Positions 3,045-62,827 of a DNA stretch of 64,000 bases are shown in pieces. A model generated the notes under the pieces. It was not told the origin of the DNA and made no database searches. It worked only from the letters and a program-made list of their open reading frames with translations. Origin of the DNA: a virus (lineage: Duplodnaviria; Heunggongvirae; Uroviricota; Caudoviricetes); the IMG/VR virus record IMGVR_UViG_2565956726_000008, one strand, 5' to 3'. The position numbers and the translations under genes were made by a program. Numbering within the stretch: the stretch's first letter is position 1; every line of letters begins with the position of its first letter.

Positions 3045-3521
3045 ATGTCTCAGACTTGCGAAAAAGGCACGTTTACAGGCCGTGACGTTGCTGTATTCTT
3101 CGCTATCGCTTGTCCAAATGCGAAGCCGGAAGTTGGAGCGTACAAAGCGTTAGGCATGATGCGTGGTAAAACACTTTCCGTTGAATGGGAAACCGCTGAC
3201 GCCACCGCCGATAAATCAGCCGATTACACGAAAGAATCAATGGTTACTTACAAATCCGTTTCTTTCTCCGGCGACGGTGTGTCCCGCACTGAAGAAATCC
3301 ATAATCAGAAAGCGCTGAAACGCCACGTAATTACGCCAGGTGAAACCACCGGATCACAACCTTATGTATGGCTGAAGATCGTTTCTCCTGTAGACGTAAC
3401 TGAAGGCCCATTCCTTTGCACTTCCTTTAAAGAAGAAGATCCGCATGATGATGTTTCCACCTGGTCTATTGAGTGCGAAAGCGCTGGCAAGGTAACGGTA
3501 GGCGACGTTCCGCCAGCATAA
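3045..3521 (+). CDS. major tail (tube) protein, putative
   Basis: 158-aa ORF with RBS, followed by its own terminator hairpin; position between neck genes and chaperone/tape-measure genes. Confidence 0.5.
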   Translation: MSQTCEKGTFTGRDVAVFFAIACPNAKPEVGAYKALGMMRGKTLSVEWETADATADKSADYTKESMVTYKSVSFSGDGVSRTEEIHNQKALKRHVITPGETTGSQPYVWLKIVSPVDVTEGPFLCTSFKEEDPHDDVSTWSIECESAGKVTVGDVPPA

Positions 3522-3567: not shown

Positions 3568-4254
3568 GTGAATACTATGATCCATGTTCGTACAGGACAA
3601 TTTGCTGCCGTGGTGAACGGTAAGCGCTATGAGTTTAATCCTTGCTTTGCTGCGATGGCTAAAATCGGCAACGATAGTGAGCTTGTCGAATATTTCGCAC
3701 TTATCCACGGCGGCAAATATCCATCACGATTGCCAGCAGATCCAGACCTCCGCAATCGCATTATGGCGCGGTGTTATGGTGAGATAGTACAAACGTCAAT
3801 GCGCATCCTGAAATGTTGCTCAGACGACGAAATAGCCCCGTTATTGGGTGAATGTAGGTCAACTTCTTCCGGCAAGTTACGACTAAAACCCGGACTGATG
3901 CCGACCAGTGACGTTATCACGCTGGCACAACATTGCATGTACCACGGTTTAATCGGTGACGGGCCAGAAGAAGACGCCGGAGAGATCCGGGAAGGGGAAT
4001 ATAAGCCGACTTTTAACGTGCTGGAATTCGTTTATTCTGCCGTAGCTCACCTGGGATTATCTGAATCAGAAGCGTGGAATATGACAATGACCGGATATAG
4101 GGCCGCTGTACGCGCTAAAACGCCGCCAGAAGCAAGAAACAAACAAAAACGCCCAAATGTATTGCTGGATAAAAAGGCTTATGACGATGGAATGAATGGT
4201 GCTATGGAGATACTAAAAAGAATGAAAAATCGCGAGCAAGAAAAAACCCGGTAG
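3568..4254 (+). CDS. tail assembly chaperone-like protein (G/GT position), putative
   Basis: 228-aa ORF (alternative start MIHV at 3577) between tail tube and tape measure genes; no frameshift signal recognised here, so assignment is positional only. Confidence 0.3.
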   Translation: MNTMIHVRTGQFAAVVNGKRYEFNPCFAAMAKIGNDSELVEYFALIHGGKYPSRLPADPDLRNRIMARCYGEIVQTSMRILKCCSDDEIAPLLGECRSTSSGKLRLKPGLMPTSDVITLAQHCMYHGLIGDGPEEDAGEIREGEYKPTFNVLEFVYSAVAHLGLSESEAWNMTMTGYRAAVRAKTPPEARNKQKRPNVLLDKKAYDDGMNGAMEILKRMKNREQEKTR

Positions 4255-4279: not shown

Positions 4280-4600
4280 TTATGCTATTTTTTCGTAAAG
4301 CACATTCATCTGGGTGCGAATCACTGTTAATATATTGATTGCTGCGTTCTTATTAATGCGTTTATTCGCTACTATTTTTGTTTTCCCATCAATAACAACC
4401 AGATCTGCGTGCAATACATGGTTGAAGTTGACAATGTAATAATACTGTTTATCGCCAACATGTTGAACATATGCACCATTTAGATTTCCTTTATACCCAC
4501 AATCACGCTCTGCGACACCGAAGTCAAATTCGCGGTTCATCTTGCGATTATATGCTACTTGTTTATGTTCCCATTTTCTCATCCATTCATCGCGTTTCAT
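4280..4600 (-). CDS. hypothetical protein (moron cassette 1, distal gene)
   Basis: 106-aa minus-strand ORF 9 nt downstream of the lipoprotein gene, antisense to the tail operon; no family recognised. Confidence 0.45.
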   Translation of the reverse strand: MKRDEWMRKWEHKQVAYNRKMNREFDFGVAERDCGYKGNLNGAYVQHVGDKQYYYIVNFNHVLHADLVVIDGKTKIVANKRINKNAAINILTVIRTQMNVLYEKIA

Positions 4601-4609
4601 GTTTCACCC

Positions 4610-5269
4610 TTAATTCCAGTTGCAAGCGTTTTTCACTTTGTCGATGTGGTTATAAAGACCATCAATGTTAAACACTGCTTTCTCAATGTCGCCAGCTTCC
4701 GGCACTGCTTCAATGATAAATTGTTTTTCGTTAACCAGTTTTTTAATCATTGGGATGGCTTTTTTGCCGTCCCATAATCCAAGAGCTTTATAATTAGTTG
4801 ACCGCCACCACTCAGTAGCTACAGCTTTGTGATCGCCGATCCGGTAGTTAATATAAGTAGTGTCCCCAGCGTCAGTTACATGGTTTGACCATGCTACGAA
4901 CATTTTTGTTTTATTACCCTGGCAAGCGATTGTTAATACAGGTTTGTTTTCATCCCGTGCTTTCAGTGTAGGGAAAGCATCAAGACTTCCGCTGAAATGT
5001 TCTGCTTTCACGAAAAGGAACACGTTTTTTGTGTCCTGCATATCATCTTTTCTTTCGACCACAAGCCACTGTTTACCAGCTTTTTCTTTTGCTAACTGTG
5101 CCTCATATGCGGCTTGTTTTGCTTGTTGTTCTGCAAGCCATTTAGCATTTTTCTCTGCTAATGCTTGTTGTTCTTGAGTGGTCACTATAGGCGCTTTTTC
5201 ATTATCCTCATTGCAACCAACCAGACCCAATACCGCCGCAATCATTGCCACTTTTGCTAACCGTTTCAT
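4610..5269 (-). CDS. lipoprotein (moron cassette 1), function unknown
   Basis: 219-aa ORF; N-terminus MKRLAKVAMIAAVLGLVGC has a signal peptide and lipobox (LVGC); GGTGGG Shine-Dalgarno upstream. Confidence 0.6.
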   Translation of the reverse strand: MKRLAKVAMIAAVLGLVGCNEDNEKAPIVTTQEQQALAEKNAKWLAEQQAKQAAYEAQLAKEKAGKQWLVVERKDDMQDTKNVFLFVKAEHFSGSLDAFPTLKARDENKPVLTIACQGNKTKMFVAWSNHVTDAGDTTYINYRIGDHKAVATEWWRSTNYKALGLWDGKKAIPMIKKLVNEKQFIIEAVPEAGDIEKAVFNIDGLYNHIDKVKNACNWN

Positions 5270-5396: not shown

Positions 5397-7739
5397 ATGG
5401 ATACCAGTGTAGGTACAATTTATTACGAAGTTGATGCGAAAACTAGTCAACTTCTCGTTGCACAACGACAGGCAGACCAGGCCTTTGGGCGTATAGAGCG
5501 CGGCGCAAAACAGGCTGACCGCCAGGTAAACACCCTGAAAACATCCATCAAGGCACTGACCAGGGTTATCCATTTGCTAATTGCTGCGGAGGCCGTGCGT
5601 CAATTCATGGATATGGCGGAGCAAGCAAAAATGCTTCGCGTAAAAATCAAAATGCTTACGGGCGATGCGGAGTCCGCCGGACGGGTTTTTGATGGCCTGA
5701 AAGCAATATCAAAAGAAACAGGCCAAAGCATGAAGGATACCGGGGATCTGTGGCAAGGCTTAGCTATCTCACTGAAGAACACGTCCGCCACTGAAGGGCA
5801 ATTGCTTAACCTGGTAGGTACGATTCAGAAAATGGGGGCATTAGGCGGCGCGTCAGCGGAACAGATGTCTAACTCAATGCGTCAATTCCGTCAGTCTATC
5901 GACGGCGGTGTTCTTCGTGCCGAAGAATTTAACAGCCTGCTTGAAAATACGCCGACCATCGTACAAACAATGGCCCGCCATATGGGATTATCAATGGGCC
6001 AGTTCCGCGCCGAAATGCTGGACGGCAAGATCACGGCTGAAAGGATGGTTAACGCAATACAGGCGGCTACGCAGGAAACAAACGATAAGTTTGCTCAGTT
6101 GCCGCGCACATCCGGCATGGCTATCAATGAGCTTAAAGTAGAAATTATGGGCCTTGTTGAGCAGTTGGATGATCTTTTTGGCGTGTCAGATGGCGTTGTT
6201 TCAGCTATCGACTTGATCACGAAAGGCGTTAAAGGGCTTGGCGATGGCGCTAAATTCGCTAAAACCTGCTTCGACACACTCAAAACGGCTGGTAGCGAAT
6301 TTATCGACATGTTTGATGATGTGGCTGTTAAGGCTGGAGAGGTGGCAGAGAAGATCATCGCAATGGTGACGCCAATCAAGGCGCTAATGGATGGCTATAA
6401 ATGGATGAAGGAGGTAGTAGGAGAGCAAACCGACGAATATAACAGCAACTACGAGAAGAAATACGGGAAGACCGTTGGCAAGGTCATGCAACTACAGGAT
6501 GATCTGACCGCAGCAATCCAGGCTACAGAAGAAGCAAGGAAAAATGAACAGAATGCTGCCAATGACGGAGCGATTACCGGATTCGACAAGCCAGTAGACA
6601 AGCCGAAAAAACAGAAAAAAGAGAAGAAATCGGAAGCTGATCGGCTTGGTGACAAAGGTATAAGCGTTTCTGATCAGTACAACAAAGACGCCGCCGCCAT
6701 GCGCAAAGCGTTGGAGAACGGCAAGGCCATTGATGCTGCATTTGCCCAGGGTAAAATCACGCTCCTTGAGTACCGCGCCGCGCAAAAAGGGATCGGCAAG
6801 GAACTGAAAGAAGAATTAGCACAAATTCCGGTAGATGAATTGCGTGATAAATGGTCACAAATAGTAAGCCCGATGGATCAGCTAAAAGGCGAAGTTGACC
6901 CCATCCAGCAGGCGCAAAATGAATGGGCCATCCGTAAGCAAATGCTTATAGACCTGGGCGCTACTGAAGCGCAACAGAAACAGGAATTGTTAGCCTATGA
7001 GCAACAGATCCGCGATCTGAAATGGGAACAATGGCAGGCGCAAAGCGACACAAACGGCCTTATCGGTGATTGTGTTAATGGCCTTAAAGGCGGAATGAGT
7101 AATGCGCTTGTTGGCCTGTTAAACGGCACTCAATCATTGAGTGATGTTTTTGCTAACTTAGGAAGCAATATACTCGGCAATATCGGTAACAGACTCTCAG
7201 ACATAGCTGCAAACTGGATAGCAGATCAGATCATGATGGAGACACAAAGCAAGGCCACGCAAACAAGTACAACAGCAAGCGCGGTAGCAGCTCAGGGAAG
7301 CATTGCTGCGGCGGCGGCCCCAGCAGCGGCGGCAACTGCGGCGTCAACTGGCGGTAGCTGGGCGGCGGCTGGTTCGGCGGCGCTCACTGCGATCATGTCG
7401 CTGGCTACGTCAATTTTCGGCGGCGGTCGCTTTAATGGTGGTAGCGTCATTGGTGGTAATATGTACCGCGTAGGGGAACACAACAGGCCGGAGCTATTCC
7501 AGACATCTAACGGCAATCAATATATGATCCCTGGCGAGAACGGCAGAGTTATTCCGGGCCGTGATATTGGCGGCGGTGGCGGTATTAGTATGCCTGTCAG
7601 TATCAGCATTCAGACCACGAACGGATTCAGCGACGAAGACAGCCGCAGACTTGAATTAACAATGGAACGTGTAGCCATGAAAATGATAACAAGGGAATCT
7701 CAAAGACCAGGCGGAATGTTGCAACCTCGCCGCAAATAA
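5397..7739 (+). CDS. tail tape measure protein (prophage A)
   Basis: 780-aa ORF, long predicted coiled-coil N-terminal part, Ala/Gly-rich C-terminal segment (AAAAPAAAATAASTGGSWAAAGSAALTA), position upstream of M-L-K-I-J. Confidence 0.8.
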   Translation: MDTSVGTIYYEVDAKTSQLLVAQRQADQAFGRIERGAKQADRQVNTLKTSIKALTRVIHLLIAAEAVRQFMDMAEQAKMLRVKIKMLTGDAESAGRVFDGLKAISKETGQSMKDTGDLWQGLAISLKNTSATEGQLLNLVGTIQKMGALGGASAEQMSNSMRQFRQSIDGGVLRAEEFNSLLENTPTIVQTMARHMGLSMGQFRAEMLDGKITAERMVNAIQAATQETNDKFAQLPRTSGMAINELKVEIMGLVEQLDDLFGVSDGVVSAIDLITKGVKGLGDGAKFAKTCFDTLKTAGSEFIDMFDDVAVKAGEVAEKIIAMVTPIKALMDGYKWMKEVVGEQTDEYNSNYEKKYGKTVGKVMQLQDDLTAAIQATEEARKNEQNAANDGAITGFDKPVDKPKKQKKEKKSEADRLGDKGISVSDQYNKDAAAMRKALENGKAIDAAFAQGKITLLEYRAAQKGIGKELKEELAQIPVDELRDKWSQIVSPMDQLKGEVDPIQQAQNEWAIRKQMLIDLGATEAQQKQELLAYEQQIRDLKWEQWQAQSDTNGLIGDCVNGLKGGMSNALVGLLNGTQSLSDVFANLGSNILGNIGNRLSDIAANWIADQIMMETQSKATQTSTTASAVAAQGSIAAAAAPAAAATAASTGGSWAAAGSAALTAIMSLATSIFGGGRFNGGSVIGGNMYRVGEHNRPELFQTSNGNQYMIPGENGRVIPGRDIGGGGGISMPVSISIQTTNGFSDEDSRRLELTMERVAMKMITRESQRPGGMLQPRRK

Positions 7740-46546: not shown

Positions 46547-47641
46547 ATGAGCAGACCGGACTGGGGGGCGTTGCAGCAGGAGTATATTGCTGAATACACC
46601 CGCTCCGGTATATCTCCGGTGGCATGGTGTGAAGCAAGGGGACTGAATTACGCAACAGCCCGTCGTTACATCAAAAAAACTCCGAAAAATGCGCAGACAG
46701 AAATGTGCAAAACTGCGCAAAAAAGTGCGCAGAAAAAATCTGCGCAGACTGCACAAAAGCGGAACGAAAAATCTCAGGAAAAAAAGCCAGTATTCGATGC
46801 GGGCCTGAATGAGGGCGACGCGGAGGAATTTTCGTTCTGTCCCGATGAATTCGGCATTTCTGACCAGCAGGCTAAGTTTGCGATGCTTGTTGCTCAGGGT
46901 AAAAAGCCGACAGAGGCGTACCGACTAGCCGGTTATGAGGGGCAAGGTGCGACAGCTAATAGCAACGCCAGTCGTATGCTTAGAAATGCCAGGGTTTTTC
47001 GCGCTATCAGCTACTTCCGCAATCAGTACCAGAAACGCTATACCGCAGACCTGGATTTACTAGTGAGTCAGTTGATGGCCATTGTCCTGGCCGACCCCAA
47101 TCAGCTTGCACAATTTCGCCGTGTTAACTGCCGTTATTGCTGGGGCGAGAATCATCTCTACCAGTGGCGCGATATAGCAGAATTCGACAAGGCAGCGGCG
47201 CAGGCTTCCAGAGATGGCAAACCCGAACCGGAATATGGAGGCCTCGGCTTTGTTGATAACGCCATACCCAATCCGGACTGCCCGAAGTGCTGCGGTGAGG
47301 GAACGGGACAGCTTTATATGGCTGATACCACTCTGCTTGATGGGGATGCGCGGCAATTATATGCAGGGGCAAAATTCGGAAAATTCGGCGTTGAGATCCT
47401 GCTGGAGGATAAGGCTGCCGCCCGGCGTGAATTGTTGCGTTTGCTTTCTGCTGGCGGGGCTTTATGTGCAGATAAGCGGCTACAGGAACTGGAAATTGAA
47501 CGGCGCAGAATGGAAAACCAGAAGCTGCGCAAAGAGATCGAAACGGTGGAAGATAATGAACATCCCCAGCCTGTGGCGATCAATATTAATGTGGTTGATG
47601 CCAGAGTAAGGAGTGATGAAGATGATCTCTCCGACGCTTAA
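46547..47641 (+). CDS. terminase small subunit with Cys-rich insertion
   Basis: 364 aa; AKFAMLVAQGKKPTEAYRLAGYEGQGATANSNASRMLRN is a typical small-terminase HTH segment; additional CxxC...CxxCC cluster; contains a DNA repeat array at 46685-46765. Confidence 0.6.
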   Translation: MSRPDWGALQQEYIAEYTRSGISPVAWCEARGLNYATARRYIKKTPKNAQTEMCKTAQKSAQKKSAQTAQKRNEKSQEKKPVFDAGLNEGDAEEFSFCPDEFGISDQQAKFAMLVAQGKKPTEAYRLAGYEGQGATANSNASRMLRNARVFRAISYFRNQYQKRYTADLDLLVSQLMAIVLADPNQLAQFRRVNCRYCWGENHLYQWRDIAEFDKAAAQASRDGKPEPEYGGLGFVDNAIPNPDCPKCCGEGTGQLYMADTTLLDGDARQLYAGAKFGKFGVEILLEDKAAARRELLRLLSAGGALCADKRLQELEIERRRMENQKLRKEIETVEDNEHPQPVAININVVDARVRSDEDDLSDA

Positions 47642-55332: not shown

Positions 55333-56295
55333 GTGAGTTCAGGTGCAAAGGTTATCTCGGCATTTATCCGGGAGACAGTTGCAGGCACTACGCCAGCAAG
55401 TGGTGACTGGAGTTTATTAAAACGCACAAGCTGGGGAGTAAAACCCACCCAGAATAAAGGCGAAAATAATGAGATTGGTGGCTCCCGGATGGCTCAGGGG
55501 GCGACGCCTGGCACTGTGGATGTCGGCGGTGATGTTGGTACCAAATTTCGCTGGGGTCAACATGATGATTTTCTTGCATCCTGTTTCGGCGCGGAATGGT
55601 CAGGCGATTCTCTGACAATGGGGAATGAGCGAATAACATTTTCTCTGGCGACCTATGCGTCCGATGTCGGAATTGCCTCTGTCGTCAGAGGAGCGCAGGT
55701 TGGCTCATGGAAAATGCAGATCCCTAACGACGGCGATATTACAGCGACCGTAACCTTTGCCGGGCTGGGCTGGGAATCAAAGGCCGATGATACGAATTTT
55801 ATCAAAGGCGAACCTGTGGATAGTGCAGGAAAGTTACGCTATTCGTTTAAGGCGGTTTCAGCAGTAAGCCTGAATGGTGTTGCCGGAGGTAACGGTTTTT
55901 GTATCGACAGTTTTGATATTCAGTTCGATAACAAACTCCAGACACAGCGTTGTATCGGGACTGGCTCGCCTTATGCAGGAGCAAATATTCCGACTACTTT
56001 TACACCGTCCGGTACGGTGACGCTTTCATGGTCTAAAGCCGCGTGGGAAATCTGGAGTAAAACACTGACTGGAGAAACAGTTCCGTTCAGCTTCACGCTT
56101 TCGAATGGAGAGGGGGCATACACTTTCAGTTTCCCGAAGGTTCAGGTGTCAGGTGAATGGCCTGATGGGGGTAATACTGACATTATCCAGGTTCAATTGA
56201 GCATTACCGCAGCAGATGAAGCACCTACGATAACCAGAAAAAAATGCTCCCCGACTGCCGTGATCGCAAAAGCCAGTGCTGATGCGATTAGTTGA
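55333..56295 (+). CDS. major tail protein
   Basis: 320-aa ORF (GTG start), upstream of chaperone/frameshift pair and tape measure. Confidence 0.55.
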   Translation: MSSGAKVISAFIRETVAGTTPASGDWSLLKRTSWGVKPTQNKGENNEIGGSRMAQGATPGTVDVGGDVGTKFRWGQHDDFLASCFGAEWSGDSLTMGNERITFSLATYASDVGIASVVRGAQVGSWKMQIPNDGDITATVTFAGLGWESKADDTNFIKGEPVDSAGKLRYSFKAVSAVSLNGVAGGNGFCIDSFDIQFDNKLQTQRCIGTGSPYAGANIPTTFTPSGTVTLSWSKAAWEIWSKTLTGETVPFSFTLSNGEGAYTFSFPKVQVSGEWPDGGNTDIIQVQLSITAADEAPTITRKKCSPTAVIAKASADAIS

Positions 56296-56343
56296 TTTTC
56301 CGTTATTCCCCCTGTGGTACTGCACTACAGGGGGACGCATTGA

Positions 56344-56805
56344 ATGAGGTTATGGATGTTTATTCTTAATCAGAAAATTATCATCGGTGGAGAACGCTGG
56401 TTTACGCCAATGAAGGACTTAAAACCTATAGACGGGTTAAAACTGTTGGTGGCAAGCAGCGATAACGATCAGTATCGCTCCCGTAATGCATTAATCCGTC
56501 GTCACATTGAGAAAATGGATGCCAGTTTGCACGTCGGAACGAAGGAGTTTGATATTTCAAAGGTTTCCGAGGTAGATTCTGTTGATGATTTACTCATTGA
56601 TAATGCTGCTCGTTATCTGCTGAAAGACTGGAAAGGGGTTGGTGAACTGGTTAATGGTGCTGAGGTTGCACTGGAATATACGCCAGAACGAGGGATCGCG
56701 CTGCTTAAGCAGAATCCAGAGTTGTACTGGCAGATCCTTGCAGAAGCAGCCAGCATCGCCCAGGGTAAAGAGCAGCAGAAGCAGGATACGATAAAAAAGC
56801 CATAG
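56344..56805 (+). CDS. tail assembly chaperone (G-like)
   Basis: 153-aa ORF ending just after an A_AAA_AAG slippery heptamer; followed by overlapping -1 frame ORF. Confidence 0.6.
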   Translation: MRLWMFILNQKIIIGGERWFTPMKDLKPIDGLKLLVASSDNDQYRSRNALIRRHIEKMDASLHVGTKEFDISKVSEVDSVDDLLIDNAARYLLKDWKGVGELVNGAEVALEYTPERGIALLKQNPELYWQILAEAASIAQGKEQQKQDTIKKP

Positions 56806-57113
56806 CCGCCCAGCGGTGGTTATCGGAGTTCGGGGGAGAAAGGGGGGAAAAGGCAAGATGGAAGCGAGAAAAACTCAGGTTGCCACCGATACCGGAACCA
56901 GAAATAGACCCGGTGCTTAAGGAATTGTTGTACGCCTATTCGGTAATATCCCGTGCCCGACGTTATGCTGGAATGACCGGGGTGCCTTTGCCTTTATCTC
57001 TGACAGAGATAAATGAATATTTAGCCACTCATCCGGTATTGATTGAGCGCGATGAGTTTGAAGCAGTGATCTTTGCACTGGATGACCAGTATTTTCAGGA
57101 GCAGTGTGTGTAG
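56344..57113 (+). CDS. tail assembly chaperone GT-type fusion via programmed -1 frameshift (predicted)
   Basis: -1 frame is open from 56769 to stop at 57113 and overlaps the G-frame slippery site at 56793-56799. Confidence 0.5.
56793..56799 (+). other. -1 ribosomal frameshift slippery heptamer A_AAA_AAG
   Basis: aaaaaag with AAA (56794-56796) and AAG (56797-56799) in the chaperone reading frame. Confidence 0.55.
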
Positions 57114-57276
57114 TTGTTAATTACGTACACTCTGTTACAGAGATGTGATGGTGTCTTTAATTAAATCGATGATGCTCCTGGAGAAAAGCATTGCGTGGCC
57201 TCGTAATCGCTATATCTACTATTATGTCGCCTGAAACCCACTTCGGTGGGCTTTTTGTTGTCTGGAGTTTTAATAA

Positions 57277-60200
57277 ATGGCAGAGCAAACCTCGCGTCTC
57301 GCAATAATTATTGATAGCACTGGAGCAAAAAATAATGCTGACAATCTGACCTCCTCATTAGTCAAAATGACGCAGGCCGGGGAAACTGCTGCAAATAGCG
57401 CAGGGAAAGTGACTAAGGCAACAGAAGATGAGAAGAACGCGCTCGCAAAATTAAAAGCAGCTATTGATCCAGTTGGTGCCGCAATTGATACTGTCGGTCG
57501 ACGCTATTCTGAATTAAAGAAATTTTTCGATAAAGGGCTTATTGATAAAGAAGAATATGAATTTCTTGTCCGTAAACTTAATGAAACCACAGAGGAATTG
57601 AGCGGGGTTGCGCAAGCGCAGAGAGAAGCCGAGAAGGCCGGAAAACTTGCTGCCGCCCAGCAGGAAGCGCAGACTCAGGCCTTTCAAAGAATGCTGGACA
57701 AGATCGACCCTCTGGCTGCGGCGCTAAGAAATCTTGAACAACAGCAGGATGAACTTAATGCTGCGTTTGCATCCGGGAAAATAAATGGTTCTCAGTTTGA
57801 GAATTATAGCCGAAAAATACAGGAAACACGGCGAGAGCTTACCGGAGAGGCTCAGGCAGAGCGAGAAGCAGCAAAAGCGCATGATGAACAGGTTGCTGCT
57901 TTGCAACGTCTGATTGCTCAACTTGACCCTGTCGGAACTGCTTTTAATCGTCTGGTAGAACAACAGAAACAGCTCAATGAAGCAAAAGCTAAGGGGATGC
58001 TCTCTCCTGAAATGTATGAGGAACTTTCTGGAAAACTTCGTGCTATGCGGAGTGAGCTTGAGGTTACTCAATCTCAATTAAGCAAAACCGGAATGTCGGC
58101 AAAACAAACGGCTTTTGCTATGCGCATGTTGCCTGCACAAATGACGGATATTGTTGTTGGGTTGTCCACTGGTCAGTCGCCTTTTATGGTGTTAATGCAG
58201 CAGGGCGGCCAGCTAAAAGATATGTTCGGTGGGATTGGCCCGGCGATCAAAGGTGTTGGTTCTTATGTGCTGGGATTAATTAATCCTTTTACCCTGGCCG
58301 CAGCAGCCGTTGGCGTCTTAGGGCTGGCTTACTATAAAGGCTCTCAGGAGCAGGACGAATTTAATAAGTCTCTTATTCTTACCGGAAATCAGTTGGGGAC
58401 AACCAGCGGGCAATTGGCCGATATAGTTCAACGTGCCGGGAATGCGGCTGATTCGACAACTGGCGCTGCGGCGGCAGTATTAAACCAGCTTGTGCGTTCG
58501 GGAAAGGTAGCGAGCAGTTCGCTGGAGCAAGTGACGACAGCGATAGTAAAAACGAGCGAAGTAACAGGAATATCAACCGAACAACTGGTTAATGACTTCA
58601 ATGAAATTGCAAAGGATCCTGTCAGTGCCATATCAAAACTTAATGATCAGTACCATTTTCTGACAATTGCGACTTATAACCAGATTAAGGCGCTACAGGA
58701 TGAAGGGAACCAGCAGGAGGCCGCCCGCATTGCGACAGAAGCATACTCATCCTCAATGATCCAGCGCACCAACCAGATTAAAGAAAATCTTGGTTATCTT
58801 GAGACTGCATGGAAAGCTGTCGCAGACTCCGCAAAATGGGCATGGGATTCCATGCTGGATATTGGCCGTGAGGCCTCCCTTGATCAAAAAATCTCAGATG
58901 TTCTCCGTCAAATTGATGAAATAGAAAAAAATACCCGACCCGGAGTTTTCGGGTTAGGTGGCATTGGAGATGGCGGAGCTCAAAATAAAAGGCTGGCACG
59001 ATTAAAGCAGCAATTGGGCGTACTTCAAGCAGAAAAAATTGCTCAGGACGTACTAAATTCATCAATAAACGATTACAACAAGCGACAACAGGAAGGAATT
59101 GAACTCAGACAGAGAGCAGATGCCTTTTCAAAACAATATCAGACCCGGGAGCAGCAGAGAGCTAGTGAACTTGCAAAACTGGAAAAACTAAAGAGTCAGT
59201 ATTCAAAGGAAGAATATAATAATCTTATCGCTCAAATAAATGAGCGTTATAAAGATCCAAAGCAACCAAAGGCGAAAGGTTATTCGGATGATGCTGCCCA
59301 ACGAATGATTGATCATCTGAATCAACAGAATGCGTTACTAAGTTCACAAACTGAATTAACCGTTAAATTAAGTTCCTCTGAACAGGAACTGGTTAAGTGG
59401 CGTCAGCAGATTGCCGACCTGGAGTCACGACCGTCATCGAAATTAACCAAGGATCAGAAATCGCTTCTCTTACACCGGGAAGAAATAACCGCGTTGATGG
59501 AGAAAAATGTTGCGATTGAAAAAAATAACAGGCTAATCAAGGAATCCGCCGAAATAGCTGCATGGCGTGATTCATTGCAGGCTTCGATTGATAATCGTCA
59601 ACAGGGGTATGATATTCAGATTGCTGGTTATGGGGTTGGCGATAAAAATCAGCAACGCCAGCAGGAATTACTGCGGATTGAACGTGAATATAACAATCAG
59701 CGTCTGCAACTTGAACGTGACTATGCAGATAAATCCCGTGGGATGTCAAATCATGTTTTTCAGGAGAAAATGCAGGCTCTGAATGATGCTCTGGAACGAG
59801 AAAAAGAAATTGTCAGACAGAAAAACGAGCAGCTCGATATTCAGGCAGGAGACTGGGTTAGTGGTGCCTCCCAGGGATTCAATAACTGGCTGGATGACAC
59901 TAAGGATATCAGTGAGCAGATAAAATCAACCACGACTCAGATGTTTGATGGAATGACCGATGCGCTGGGTGATTTTGTCACGACAGGCAAAGCAAATTTT
60001 CGTTCTTTCGCTACTTCCGTGATTTCGGATCTTAGTCGAATAGCATTAAAGGCTTCAATTACTGGGATTTTCGACAGCATTAGTAACAGTTCTTCTGGGG
60101 GGATTTTAGGAACTATCGGGAGTGCTATTAGTAAATTTATTCCGAATGCAAAGGGCGGTGTTTATGAGTCTCCGTCATTGAACACGTATTCGAACGGTAT

Positions 60201-60510
60201 TTATGATTCCCCGCAATTTTTTGCTTTTGCAAGAGGGGCTGGTGTTTTTGGTGAGGCTGGTCCGGAAGCCATTATGCCATTAACACGAACTTCCGATGGT
60301 TCTCTTGGTGTCAGAGCTGTTAATAGTAAAAGTGGTAATGGAGGCGGAGATATTACCTATGCCCCTGTATACCAAATCACTATTCAAAATGACGGCCAGA
60401 ATGGAGAGATTGGCCCTCAGGCAATAAAAGCACTTATGGGGATGGTTGATCAGCGGGTGCAGGGCAATCTGTTAAATATGCGACGTGATGGGGGAATGTT
60501 AAGTGGCTAA
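57277..60510 (+). CDS. tail tape measure protein (prophage B)
   Basis: 1077 aa, predicted coiled-coil-rich, immediately upstream of M. Confidence 0.85.
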
Positions 60511-60841
60511 TACGGAAGAATTTCACTGGTTACCAGAGGATGGAATGAAAACAGAAAATAAACCATCGATAAAAACTGTAAGATTTGGCGATGGTTATGA
60601 GCAACGAAGTCCAAATGGACTTAATCATTCTCTGCGCGTTTTCACCTGTGATTTCAAAGTTGAGGCGAATGAACGTGATTCATTTGAAAAATTTTTAGCC
60701 CGGCATGAAGGCTATAAATCTTTTTTTTGGCGCCCGCCGGGTATTAACAGAAAAATCAGAGTGGTGTGTCGAACGTGGTCAGCGACAGAACATATCACCT
60801 ATACCGATTTTTCGTGTCAGTTTGACGAAGTGGTGATCTGA
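60503..60841 (+). CDS. M: minor tail protein M
   Basis: 112 aa; [18 protein letters not shown]...WRPPG...QFDEVV close to lambda M as I recall it. Confidence 0.9.
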
Positions 60842-61539
60842 TGCAGGACATACAACAGGAAACACTGAATGAATGCATTCGTGCGGAGCAGTCGGCCAGC
60901 GTGGTGCTCTGGGAAATCGACCTGACCGAGGTAGGCGGGGATCGCTACTTTTTCTGTAATGAGCAGAACGAAAAAGGTGAGTCTGTCACCTGGCAGAGTC
61001 GGCAGTATCAGGCCTATCCCATTCAGGGGAGTGGATTTGAGATGAACGGCAAGGGCAGTGCTGCCCGTCCGACACTGGCGGTCTCTAACCTGCACGGCAT
61101 GATCACCGGGATGGCGGAAGATCTGCAGAGTCTGGTCGGCGGAACGGTGGTCCGGCGTAAGGTTTACGCCCGCTTTCTGGATGCGGTGAACTTCGTCAAC
61201 GGAAACAGCGAAGCCGATCCGGAGCAGGAGGTGATCAGCCGCTGGCGCATCGAGCAGTGCAGCGAACTGAGCGCGGTCAGTGCCTCTTTTGTACTGTCCA
61301 CGCCGACTGAAACGGATGGCGCTGTTTTTCCGGGACGTATCATGCTGGCCAACACCTGCACCTGGACCTATCGCGGCGATGAGTGCGGTTATAGCGGTCC
61401 GGCGGTCGCGGATGAATATGACCAGCCGACGTCCGATATCACGAAGGATAAATGCAGCAAATGCCTGAGTGGCTGTAAGTTTCGCAATAATGTCGGCAAC
61501 TTTGGCAGCTTCCTTTCCATTAACAAACTTTCGCAGTAA
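60841..61539 (+). CDS. L: minor tail protein L
   Basis: 232 aa, almost identical to lambda L as I recall it ([12 protein letters not shown]...FLSINKLSQ). Confidence 0.95.
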   Translation: MQDIQQETLNECIRAEQSASVVLWEIDLTEVGGDRYFFCNEQNEKGESVTWQSRQYQAYPIQGSGFEMNGKGSAARPTLAVSNLHGMITGMAEDLQSLVGGTVVRRKVYARFLDAVNFVNGNSEADPEQEVISRWRIEQCSELSAVSASFVLSTPTETDGAVFPGRIMLANTCTWTYRGDECGYSGPAVADEYDQPTSDITKDKCSKCLSGCKFRNNVGNFGSFLSINKLSQ

Positions 61540-61544
61540 ATCCC

Positions 61545-62288
61545 ATGACAGAGACAGAATCAGCGATTCTGGCGCACGCCCGGCGATGTGCGCCAGCGGA
61601 GTCGTGCGGCTTCGTGGTGAGAACGCCGGAGGAGGAAAGATATTTTCCCTGCGTGAATATCTCCGGTGAGCCGGAGGAGTATTTCCGGATGTCGCCGGAG
61701 GACTGGCTGAGTGCAGAAATGCAGGGAGAGATTGTGGCGCTGGTCCACAGCCACCCCGGTGGTCTGCCCTGGCTGAGTGAGGCCGACCGGCGGCTGCAGG
61801 TACAGAGTGATTTGCCGTGGTGGCTGGTCTGCCGGGGGGCGATTCATAAATTCCGCTGTGTGCCGCATCTCACCGGGCGGCGCTTTGAGCACGGGGTAAC
61901 GGACTGTTACACGCTGTTCCGGGACGCTTACCATCTGGCGGGAATTGAGATGCCGGATTTTCATCGCGGGGATGACTGGTGGCGTAACGGTCAGAATCTC
62001 TATCTGGATAATCTGGAGGCCACAGGGCTGTATCAGGTGCCGTTGTCAGCGGCGCAGCCGGGCGATGTGCTGCTGTGCTGTTTTGGTTCATCGGTGCCGA
62101 ATCATGCCGCCATTTACTGTGGTGACAGCGAGCTGCTGCACCATATTCCTGAACAACTGAGCAAACGAGAGAGGTACACCGACAAATGGCAGCGACGCAC
62201 ACACTCCCTCTGGCGTCACCGGGCATGGCACGCATCTGCCTTTACGGGGATTTACAACGATTTGGCCGCCGCATCGACCTTCGAGTGA
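61545..62288 (+). CDS. K: tail assembly protein K
   Basis: 247 aa, near-identical to lambda K as I recall it (MTETESAILAHARRCAPAESCGFVV...). Confidence 0.9.
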   Translation: MTETESAILAHARRCAPAESCGFVVRTPEEERYFPCVNISGEPEEYFRMSPEDWLSAEMQGEIVALVHSHPGGLPWLSEADRRLQVQSDLPWWLVCRGAIHKFRCVPHLTGRRFEHGVTDCYTLFRDAYHLAGIEMPDFHRGDDWWRNGQNLYLDNLEATGLYQVPLSAAQPGDVLLCCFGSSVPNHAAIYCGDSELLHHIPEQLSKRERYTDKWQRRTHSLWRHRAWHASAFTGIYNDLAAASTFE

Positions 62289-62827
62289 AAACGGGGTCCG
62301 AAGCCATCCGGGCGCTGGCCATGCAGATCCCGGCATTTCGTCAGAAACTGAGCGACGGCTGGTACCAGGTACGCATTGCCGGGCGTGATGCAGGTGAAAC
62401 CGAATTGTCTGCCCGTCTTAATGAGCCGCTGGAAAATGGTGCCGTGATCCATATCGTGCCGCGTCTGGCAGGAGCCAAAAGTGGCGGTGTGTTTCAGGCT
62501 GTGCTGGGGGCGGCTGTTATGGCGGTTGCTATATGGATGCCGGGGGTAGGAATTATGGCGAGTAATCTGCTGTTTTCTCTCGGTGCCAGTATGACGCTTG
62601 GCGGTGTTGCACAGATGCTGGCCCCTAAACCCAAAACCCCCCGCACACAGACAACGGATAACGGCAAACAGAACACCTATTTTTCTTCACTGGATAACAT
62701 GGTTGCCCAGGGCAATGTTCTGCCGGTTCTGTACGGTGAAATGCGCGTGGGGTCACGCGTGGTTTCTCAGGAGATCAGCACGGCAGACGAAGGGGATGGT
62801 GGTCAGGTTGTGGTGATTGGTCGCTGA
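62186..62827 (+). CDS. I: tail assembly protein I
   Basis: 213 aa, near-identical at both ends to lambda I as I recall it (MAATHTLPLASPGMARICLYGDLQRFGRR...GGQVVVIGR); overlaps K 3' end. Confidence 0.9.
   Translation: MAATHTLPLASPGMARICLYGDLQRFGRRIDLRVKTGSEAIRALAMQIPAFRQKLSDGWYQVRIAGRDAGETELSARLNEPLENGAVIHIVPRLAGAKSGGVFQAVLGAAVMAVAIWMPGVGIMASNLLFSLGASMTLGGVAQMLAPKPKTPRTQTTDNGKQNTYFSSLDNMVAQGNVLPVLYGEMRVGSRVVSQEISTADEGDGGQVVVIGR

Follow-up and report, generated by a model that had tools for sequence, protein, structure and literature searches.

A predicted programmed -1 ribosomal frameshift linking the tail assembly chaperone gene ydaY to a start-less extension in a tailed phage

Introduction

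A tail assembly chaperone gene that closes on AAA AAG CCA TAG, with a second open reading frame (ORF) running on in the -1 frame, raises the question of how that second frame is translated: from a start codon of its own, or by ribosomes that slip back from the first gene. Such a locus is present at 56356-57113 of a 64,000-nt stretch of Caudoviricetes DNA (IMG/VR record IMGVR_UViG_2565956726_000008), and the whole stretch that was analysed is hereafter called the window. The -1 frameshift that produces G and G-T in phage lambda has been described in detail (Levin, Hendrix & Casjens 1993; Xu, Hendrix & Duda 2004, 2013, 2014; summarised in PMC5009743), and G/GT frameshifting is widely conserved among long-tailed phages, with chaperones at this gene position (PMC5009743). 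The heptamer A_AAA_AAG is highly shift-prone in E. coli, much above other A/U-rich heptamers, and CC is the most shift-prone dinucleotide context 3' of the slip site (PMC5009743).

We predict from the sequence that this locus uses a programmed -1 ribosomal frameshift to make a 149-aa chaperone as its main product and a 252-aa fusion as the lesser one, a reading to which we assign a probability of about 0.87. The site appears to be a genuine but ordinary one of the G/GT type.

Results and discussion

Gene content of the locus

To describe the locus, the following features were delineated:

55333-56295, plus strand: tail tube gene, the upstream neighbour (Pfam Phage_tube_2, E=1.9e-32; phrog_290)
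56356-56805, plus strand: 0-frame tail assembly chaperone gene, the 'G' analogue, named YdaY in RefSeq, 149 aa (phrog_313, synteny and N-termini)
56793-56799, plus strand: slippery heptamer A_AAA_AAG followed by CC (phase, conservation in relatives and the K148 column)
56799-57113, plus strand: -1 frame extension, the 'T' analogue, 104 codons and a stop, entered at G56799 (open frame, phrog_1189 and coding-type variation)
56356-57113, plus strand: span of the predicted 252-aa G-T fusion, 56356-56799 joined to 56799-57113 (phrog_313 profile and alignment of fusions)
57277-60510, plus strand: tape measure protein gene, the downstream neighbour (Pfam TMP_2, TMP_4 and Tape_meas_lam_C; phrog_24)

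The locus was compared with the criteria for G/GT membership of Xu, Hendrix & Duda 2004, which concern synteny, a second ORF overlapping the first in the -1 frame, a conserved in-phase slippery sequence, and the lack of independent initiation. As for synteny, both ORFs (56356-56805 and 56799-57113) are placed between the tube and tape measure genes. Homologues of the lambda genes M, L, K, I and J were observed 3' of the tape measure gene, at 60503-62827 and beyond.

The chaperone start is most likely the ATG at 56356 and not the position 56344, because a GAGG is present at 56346-56349 and the N-terminus matches those of homologues (MFILNQ...). The chaperone alone matched phrog_313 ('tail assembly chaperone') with E=3.8e-46 over profile positions 15-149 of 258, and the conceptual fusion matched it with E=6.4e-51 over positions 20-246, a full-length family match. 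The phrog_313 profile thus already covers both parts. The extension matched phrog_1189 (E=1.7e-36) and scored 20.3 bits against Pfam Phage_TAC_18, which is below the cut-off of 27. The chaperone part had no match in the Pfam library searched, which lacks PF27119, the precomputed label carried by homologues. No match was obtained when NCBIfam was searched with the fusion, and a PDB sequence-profile search with the chaperone found nothing relevant. An AlphaFold2 model of the chaperone, built from an 18-sequence alignment, was of poor quality (mean pLDDT 55, pTM 0.39).

Slippery site and reading frames

The 0-frame context of the AAAAAAG at 56793-56799 on the plus strand is ...GAT ACG ATA AAA AAG CCA TAG. 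The heptamer is thereby read in the phase A_AAA_AAG, the canonical X_XXY_YYZ, with CC (56800-56801) directly 3'. Its AAG is the second-last sense codon of the chaperone gene, and the TAG stop occupies 56803-56805. In the -1 frame, sense codons run from 56769 up to a stop at 57111-57113; this frame takes in the listed ORF at 56880-57113 and overlaps the 0 frame by 37 nt. A preliminary description of this DNA had claimed both the heptamer near the end of the chaperone ORF and a -1 frame open from 56769 through the ORF at 56880-57113; coordinates and phase are as claimed, and the frame scan agrees. After a slip the reading would be GCC ATA GCC GCC CAG..., and the fusion would comprise 148 residues from the 0 frame and 104 from the -1 frame, 252 aa in all.

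The bare heptamer is not special in the window, where AAAAAAG occurs 31 times on both strands together, against 20.2 +/- 4.9 in shuffles. All 31 copies were examined as though each stood in the canonical phase. Only the copy at 56793 combines 150 codons open upstream, a 0 frame closing 3 codons on and a -1 frame of at least 100 codons. An in-phase copy inside a long open frame at 46780 leads to a -1 frame that closes after 8 codons, which is the expected appearance of an adventitious site. The significance of the 56793 site therefore derives from its configuration and its conservation in relatives, and not from the motif itself. The abundance of AAAAAAG, and the existence of in-phase copies without a productive -1 frame such as that at 46780, would suit the view that the two ORFs are independent genes, the downstream one starting at TTG 56880 or, as in RefSeq, at GTG 56913, with the heptamer merely encoding Lys-Lys by chance; this view is taken up again below with the coding signal of the second ORF.

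Conservation of the two-piece arrangement in relatives

Tblastn of the fusion against a phage collection recovered relatives in phages of Klebsiella (about 65% identity), Erwinia (55%), Pseudomonas (32%) and Acinetobacter, and those that matched both parts always did so as two pieces. A scan of IMG/VR added 80 further loci. When the two halves were searched separately by tblastn, the extension proved to be in frame -1 with respect to the chaperone at 86 of 87 related loci. The exception (L009) carries a G6-to-G5 change inside the extension, which is a homopolymer indel and not an in-frame fusion. The window fusion aligns end to end with the conceptual fusions of the Klebsiella, Erwinia, Pseudomonas and Acinetobacter phages. 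When five conceptual fusions were aligned as proteins, only 18 columns were invariant, and the slip lysine K148 stands in one of them.

Entries that could have been taken for natural fusions were rejected. P0001 (240 aa) is explained by a 35-nt deletion between GCAGAAGCAG repeats in one contig, and P0002, P0004 and P0011 are homopolymer indels or assembly artefacts by appearance. None of the four is evidence for or against slippage.

A possible origin of the split by decay was also considered, in which the chaperone gene had originally been continuous and was split by the loss of one nucleotide from a homopolymer in a defective prophage. Homopolymer indels do occur in database entries of the family (L009, P0002, P0004), and the gene owes its name to the cryptic Rac prophage of K-12, in which the tail module is degraded. 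However, phages that were induced and sequenced have the same split and the same site, and so do relatives across genera, with identities as low as 26-32%; in the relatives examined no continuous ORF extends over both parts, save in P0001 with its deletion. These observations make a decaying pseudogene scarcely credible.

The slip site was compared at the codon aligned with K148, where 25 distinct sequence contexts were available. A_AAA_AAG followed by CC was unchanged in 22 of them, which span 100% to 65% chaperone identity. In these 22 contexts the preceding Thr codon (acg/acc/aca) and the Ile/Val codon vary, and a Lys codon 17 codons downstream toggles between AAG and AAA. The 0-frame stop in relatives follows 1, 7, 25 or 35 codons past the heptamer, so conservation does not extend to its position; the -1 frame runs on for 104-117 codons in every case.

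More distant relatives carry other heptamers at the same aligned codon. The homologous site of Erwinia phage Gungnir39 is C_GCA_AAG, with TAA following at once. Pseudomonas phages have G_GAA_AAG CCA, with a 0 frame reading ...ETLEKP as against ...DTIKKP in the window, and a -1 frame reading KAIARFQWESEW as against KAIAAQRWLSEFGG. In the Acinetobacter phage TRS1 the site is G_GGA_AAG, and the 0 frame goes on for another 26 codons behind it. The in-phase slippery sequence conserved in the Erwinia, Pseudomonas and Acinetobacter relatives is thus NNA_AAG, and the common denominator of the sites in this family appears to be A_AAG read by tRNA-Lys. The preliminary description had identified the ORF pair as a tail chaperone gene in a G/GT arrangement; phrog_313, synteny, the -1 frame and the kept slip site all agree with this identification.

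These sites also bear on the possibility that the shift occurs during transcription. An RNA polymerase adding one A within the A6 run of the site would give rise to the same fusion (...IKKAIAAQ...), since the insertion of a single A yields an amino-acid sequence identical to that of a -1 ribosomal slip, and poly-A tracts are known for polymerase slippage (PMC3711429). Proteomics would for that reason be unable to exclude the RNA polymerase route. Such slippage is, however, productive in runs of more than 7 A (PMC3711429), whereas only 6 are present here, and the GCA_AAG, GAA_AAG and GGA_AAG of the distant relatives have no such run (3-4 A), the common feature being the ribosomal A_AAG motif. 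We consider transcriptional slippage most improbable and retain a ribosomal shift as the explanation.

A start-less coding stretch behind the slip site

To learn how the second ORF could be reached, we analysed the 84 nt from G56799 (28 codons) in 24 distinct sequences of at least 65% identity. Variable columns were distributed over -1-frame codon positions 1, 2 and 3 as 10, 9 and 25. The ratio of synonymous to non-synonymous pairwise codon differences was 2462/1234 in the -1 frame, compared to 576/3411 in the 0 frame and 295/3613 in the +1 frame. As regards independent initiation, 17 of the 24 sequences had no ATG, GTG or TTG anywhere in the 28 -1-frame codons, and in the E. coli clade the sole start-type codon was a TTG in position 28. 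Ahead of this TTG (56880), the 27 codons are conserved as protein, with the pattern AI.AQ.WL.EFGGE.GEKA.W.REKL. Coding-type evolution that begins at the slip site, together with the absence of an initiation codon, indicates that this stretch would be reachable only from the upstream gene. Of the evidence against a second ORF translated on its own, we consider this start-less coding stretch the strongest.

Two independent genes are what RefSeq and GenBank present, with separate CDSs. Against this, the 27 codons before TTG 56880 vary as a -1-frame coding sequence, the heptamer is invariant while neighbouring synonymous sites are variable, and the -1 relation is held throughout the related loci with the single exception given above. 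Furthermore, a start-type codon is missing from the stretch in most of the distinct relatives, and no SD-like sequence is visible ahead of GTG 56913. Independent genes with an adventitious heptamer are accordingly very unlikely, and entry into the second ORF by frameshifting is the reading that we follow below.

Candidate stimulatory elements

The preliminary description had proposed a search for a downstream stimulatory RNA structure. Folding of the region gave one candidate:

56802-56823, plus strand: candidate hairpin AUAGCCGCC-CAGC-GGUGGUUAU (MFE and centroid structures of several folding windows; clade-specific)

The GC-rich part of this hairpin starts 5 nt past the heptamer, which is a reasonable spacing, and its folding energy is about -14 kcal/mol, which is not significantly below that of shuffles (z=-1.2). 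Single-sequence folds overall had z-scores from -1.2 to +0.5, and the Klebsiella and Erwinia equivalents formed no comparable hairpin (z=+0.2 and -0.6, respectively). RNAalifold on 23 distinct relatives gave a consensus of -3 kcal/mol with negligible covariation and no conserved structure. The RNAalifold result and the shuffle z-scores speak against a conserved stimulatory RNA structure, and the search suggested earlier was in this sense negative. The hairpin at 56802-56823 is specific to the E. coli clade, and a putative role for it is possible.

Upstream of the site, an AGGA is present at 56783-56786, 6 nt before the heptamer. It is conserved, though absent in Erwinia, and overlaps conserved Gln-Asp/Glu codons, by which its conservation is confounded. 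We take the signal to be the heptamer and its 3' context, plus at most a weak clade-specific hairpin.

Proposed mechanism

According to the proposed mechanism, most ribosomes would translate 56356-56805 and terminate at the TAG, releasing the 149-aa chaperone. A minority would slip one nucleotide backward while decoding ATA AAA AAG. The one tRNA-Lys of E. coli forms a poor pair with AAG and re-pairs on AAA. Ribosomes that have shifted would read GCC ATA GCC and continue to 57113, giving the 252-aa fusion, in which the chaperone body is followed by a 104-residue C-terminal domain. By analogy with lambda gpG and gpGT, the shared N-terminal part may coat the tape measure protein, and the rarer extension may recruit the tail tube protein, with the ratio of the two products being set by the slip frequency. 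The slippage itself is inferred, as are, by this analogy, the binding roles of both domains. The slip frequency is probably a few percent, as expected from the behaviour of unstimulated A_AAA_AAG and from tail chaperone sites that shift at 6-7%.

The variation of the sites suggests a more general, tentative hypothesis for the family. The sites may be anchored on A_AAG, with an invariant Lys codon AAG after an A and a P-site codon that varies between AAA, GGA, GAA and GCA. Single-tRNA slippage on A_AAG would then be ancestral and sufficient, and A_AAA_AAG with CC would be a host-tuned upgrade that makes use of the single tRNA-Lys of E. coli. G_GAA_AAG (Pseudomonas) and C_GCA_AAG (Erwinia) are unable to support canonical tandem re-pairing, so they would have to act by single-tRNA slippage if they are functional. 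We think that this hypothesis is more probably wrong than right. If true, the family, including the silent Rac copy of K-12, would form a natural series on slip-site strength versus the chaperone:fusion ratio.

Comparison with known frameshift systems

The locus resembles lambda G/GT in that the major tail (tube) gene and the tape measure gene enclose a pair of overlapping ORFs, of which the second is start-less and in the -1 frame. Both also have, close to where the first ORF ends, a slip heptamer with A_AAG as its last four letters, and the tail genes downstream of the tape measure gene are lambda-like. The heptamer is A_AAA_AAG in the window, whereas lambda has G_GGA_AAG, and the window tube protein is of the Phage_tube_2 type, unlike lambda gpV. 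As neither half of the window pair matches the Pfam gpG or gpT families of lambda, the functional analogy rests on position and PHROG annotation. The element would work like lambda G/GT without being a member of its sequence family.

E. coli dnaX has the identical heptamer, and there too the single tRNA-Lys of this host decodes it. In dnaX the shift leads into a frame that stops almost at once and gives a shorter product, at about 50% with two stimulators, an SD-like element on the 5' side and a hairpin on the 3' side. The shift in the window, by contrast, would lengthen the protein by 104 residues. The window AGGA is weak and is placed 6 nt upstream, compared to 10 nt in dnaX, and the window hairpin is weak, clade-specific and without covariation support.

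Acinetobacter phage vB_AbaS_TRS1 (TRS1_18/TRS1_19) contains a distant homologue with 26% identity over the conceptual fusion. It occupies the same position after the major tail gene, and its slip lysine aligns with K148 of the window. Its site is of the lambda type (G_GGA_AAG), unlike that of the window, and its join is annotated as a two-piece CDS.

A further comparison is provided by the HK97-like tail chaperone cluster of Antonov et al. 2013, in which frameshifting was confirmed in reporters at 6-7% (PMC3711429). These are likewise prophage-borne tail chaperone genes annotated as two ORFs, and the 6-7% gives the expected order of magnitude for the window site. The cluster belongs to a different sequence family, and no YdaY/phrog_313 member was reported as tested there (PMC3711429).

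Occurrence and public annotation

The 1-kb region is identical or nearly so in ten deposited phage genomes, and the locus occurs in 1075 of the 5426 complete E. coli genomes searched, roughly one in five. RefSeq annotates 56446-56805 as 'ydaY: protein YdaY', the start being truncated, and lists 56913-57113 as a 'hypothetical protein' of its own. GenBank phage records contain the same two separate CDSs and no join. In the Rac cryptic prophage of K-12, ydaY (b1366) likewise ends in A AAA AAG CCA TAG, and the -1 ORF is intact there, yet unannotated. TRS1 was the sole relative found with an annotated two-piece CDS; the join is unannotated in the E. coli, Salmonella and Klebsiella relatives. No paper pairing ydaY with frameshifting was found in the literature searched; Gurvich et al. 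2003, said to be a survey of A_AAA_AAG in E. coli genes, was outside that literature.

The 56793 site is a so far unannotated case of the well-known G/GT frameshift. Its main value is for annotation, since recognition of the join assigns a function to each ORF and puts the gene models right; beyond the established G/GT paradigm it contains no new biology. A further use is offered by the natural slip-site variants at a fixed codon, which could serve for studying the product ratio.

The chaperone-position gene of Prophage A

The preliminary description had also pointed to the region called Prophage A, where it saw no equivalent site in the chaperone-position gene and suggested that this gene, a single ORF of 228 aa, might be a fused solution. 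The gene at 3577-4254 encodes 225 aa from its ATG and belongs to DUF6246 and phrog_791. It has a major tail protein gene (3045-3521) on one side and a tape measure gene (5397-7739) on the other, with two reverse-strand genes intervening before the latter. A terminator-like hairpin with a run of T stands at its end.

A scan of 3577-4254 for in-phase heptamers and NNA_AAG found no usable slip site, in line with the first of the two statements. CCCAAAT, the sole heptamer in phase, leads to 4 open codons in the -1 frame, and the one NNA_AAG site is followed by 2. The second suggestion is not supported: hhalign of the gene product against the YdaY-type family profile gave a probability of 0.4%, and a 'fused G-T' was rejected on this basis, the DUF6246/phrog_791 protein showing no similarity to the YdaY-type G-T family. 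Homologues of the protein in 328 phage records are single-piece matches, and one of them is annotated as 'tail assembly chaperone protein'.

Gene models at the chaperone/extension locus

The 5' ends of both RefSeq models at this locus look wrong. The model for the chaperone gene, "YdaY" (56446-56805), starts 30 codons 3' of the probable start codon, ATG 56356. The "hypothetical protein" (56913-57113) lies in the extension (the -1 frame ORF predicted to join the chaperone by frameshifting), and its GTG start at 56913 falls within the conserved -1-frame coding stretch.

A related gene, ydaY (b1366), is found in the Rac cryptic prophage of K-12, where it closes with A AAA AAG CCA TAG, as in the window.

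L090 2622-3289 (E. coli K-12 MG1655, NC_000913.3 1425621-1426288): Rac ydaY locus

Rac ydaY, labelled "putative uncharacterized protein" in K-12, is the chaperone gene's 3' portion and is joined upstream to ynaK. On its 3' side lies an intact -1 ORF that is homologous to the extension and is left unannotated in the K-12 record.

Candidate slip sites in distant relatives and elsewhere in the window

At the homologous slip position, Erwinia phage Gungnir39 (L005 1986-1995) carries C_GCA_AAG with TAA directly after it, and Pseudomonas phages Aurca01 and PSA-2T (L006 and L007, 1887-1893) carry G_GAA_AAG. Tandem re-pairing is poor at both of these non-canonical motifs, which suggests, from the sequences, single-tRNA slippage on A_AAG in these three phages. 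Their records annotate each of the two ORFs separately.

In the window, a second A_AAA_AAG in canonical phase was observed at 46780-46786; the open frame around it is long, with 79 codons on the 5' side and 286 on the 3' side. The -1 frame at this heptamer shuts after 8 codons. It is likely an adventitious shift-prone site, which would yield a truncated product at low frequency.

The chaperone position of Prophage A, another prophage in the window, is occupied by one 225-aa ORF (3577-4254; DUF6246, phrog_791), and no productive slip site was found in this gene, in line with the preliminary description, which had reported a single ORF lacking an equivalent site. Homologues were seen in 328 phage records, including many Salmonella and Klebsiella siphophages, and they too are single ORFs. 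The gene ends with a terminator-like hairpin, and two reverse-strand genes (4280-4600 and 4610-5269) lie between it and the tape measure gene.

Indels and deletions in database entries

One E. coli contig (P0001, NB16F79_39920) has lost 35 nt between two direct repeats of GCAGAAGCAG.

Window ~56737-56785: region equivalent to the P0001 deletion

The deletion joins the chaperone to the -1 frame 5' of the heptamer, giving a constitutive 240-aa fusion and no separate short product. This contig is probably a defective prophage.

Early in the extension, the G-rich tract GGGGGAGAAAGGGGGGAAAAGG (window 56831-56852) is an indel hot spot among database entries. Examples are the related locus L009 (1978-1993), in which G6 has become G5, and the frame-hopping Logan-derived proteins P0002, P0004 and P0011. 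These indels are likely homopolymer sequencing or assembly errors. G_GAA_AAG is also present in the tract, where it is read in the extension's own frame.

The lambda I-like tail assembly gene, an intact 213-codon ORF in the window (62186-62827), is listed as a frameshifted pseudogene in the annotation of E. coli 7/2 (L001 11986-12527), a strain identical to the window across the 1-kb query region (56300-57300 in window coordinates).

Hairpins flanking the chaperone/extension pair

A strong 12-bp hairpin, CCCCCUGUGGUA…UACUACAGGGGG, was observed at 56307-56335, in the 60 nt that separate the stop codon of the tube gene from the chaperone start. The fold of 56296-56360 has an energy of -24.2 kcal/mol (z=-2.8), and no T run follows the hairpin. 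It is a candidate modulator of relative tube/chaperone gene expression or of mRNA stability.

A hairpin resembling a terminator, T run included (CCCACTTCGGTGGG CTTTTTGTTG), was observed at 57237-57260, 17 nt 5' of the tape measure start codon and within the 163-nt gap between the extension and the tape measure gene. Klebsiella relatives (L003 2404-3239) have two additional genes in this gap, one of them annotated as a membrane protein, and the gap therefore looks like a moron insertion site.
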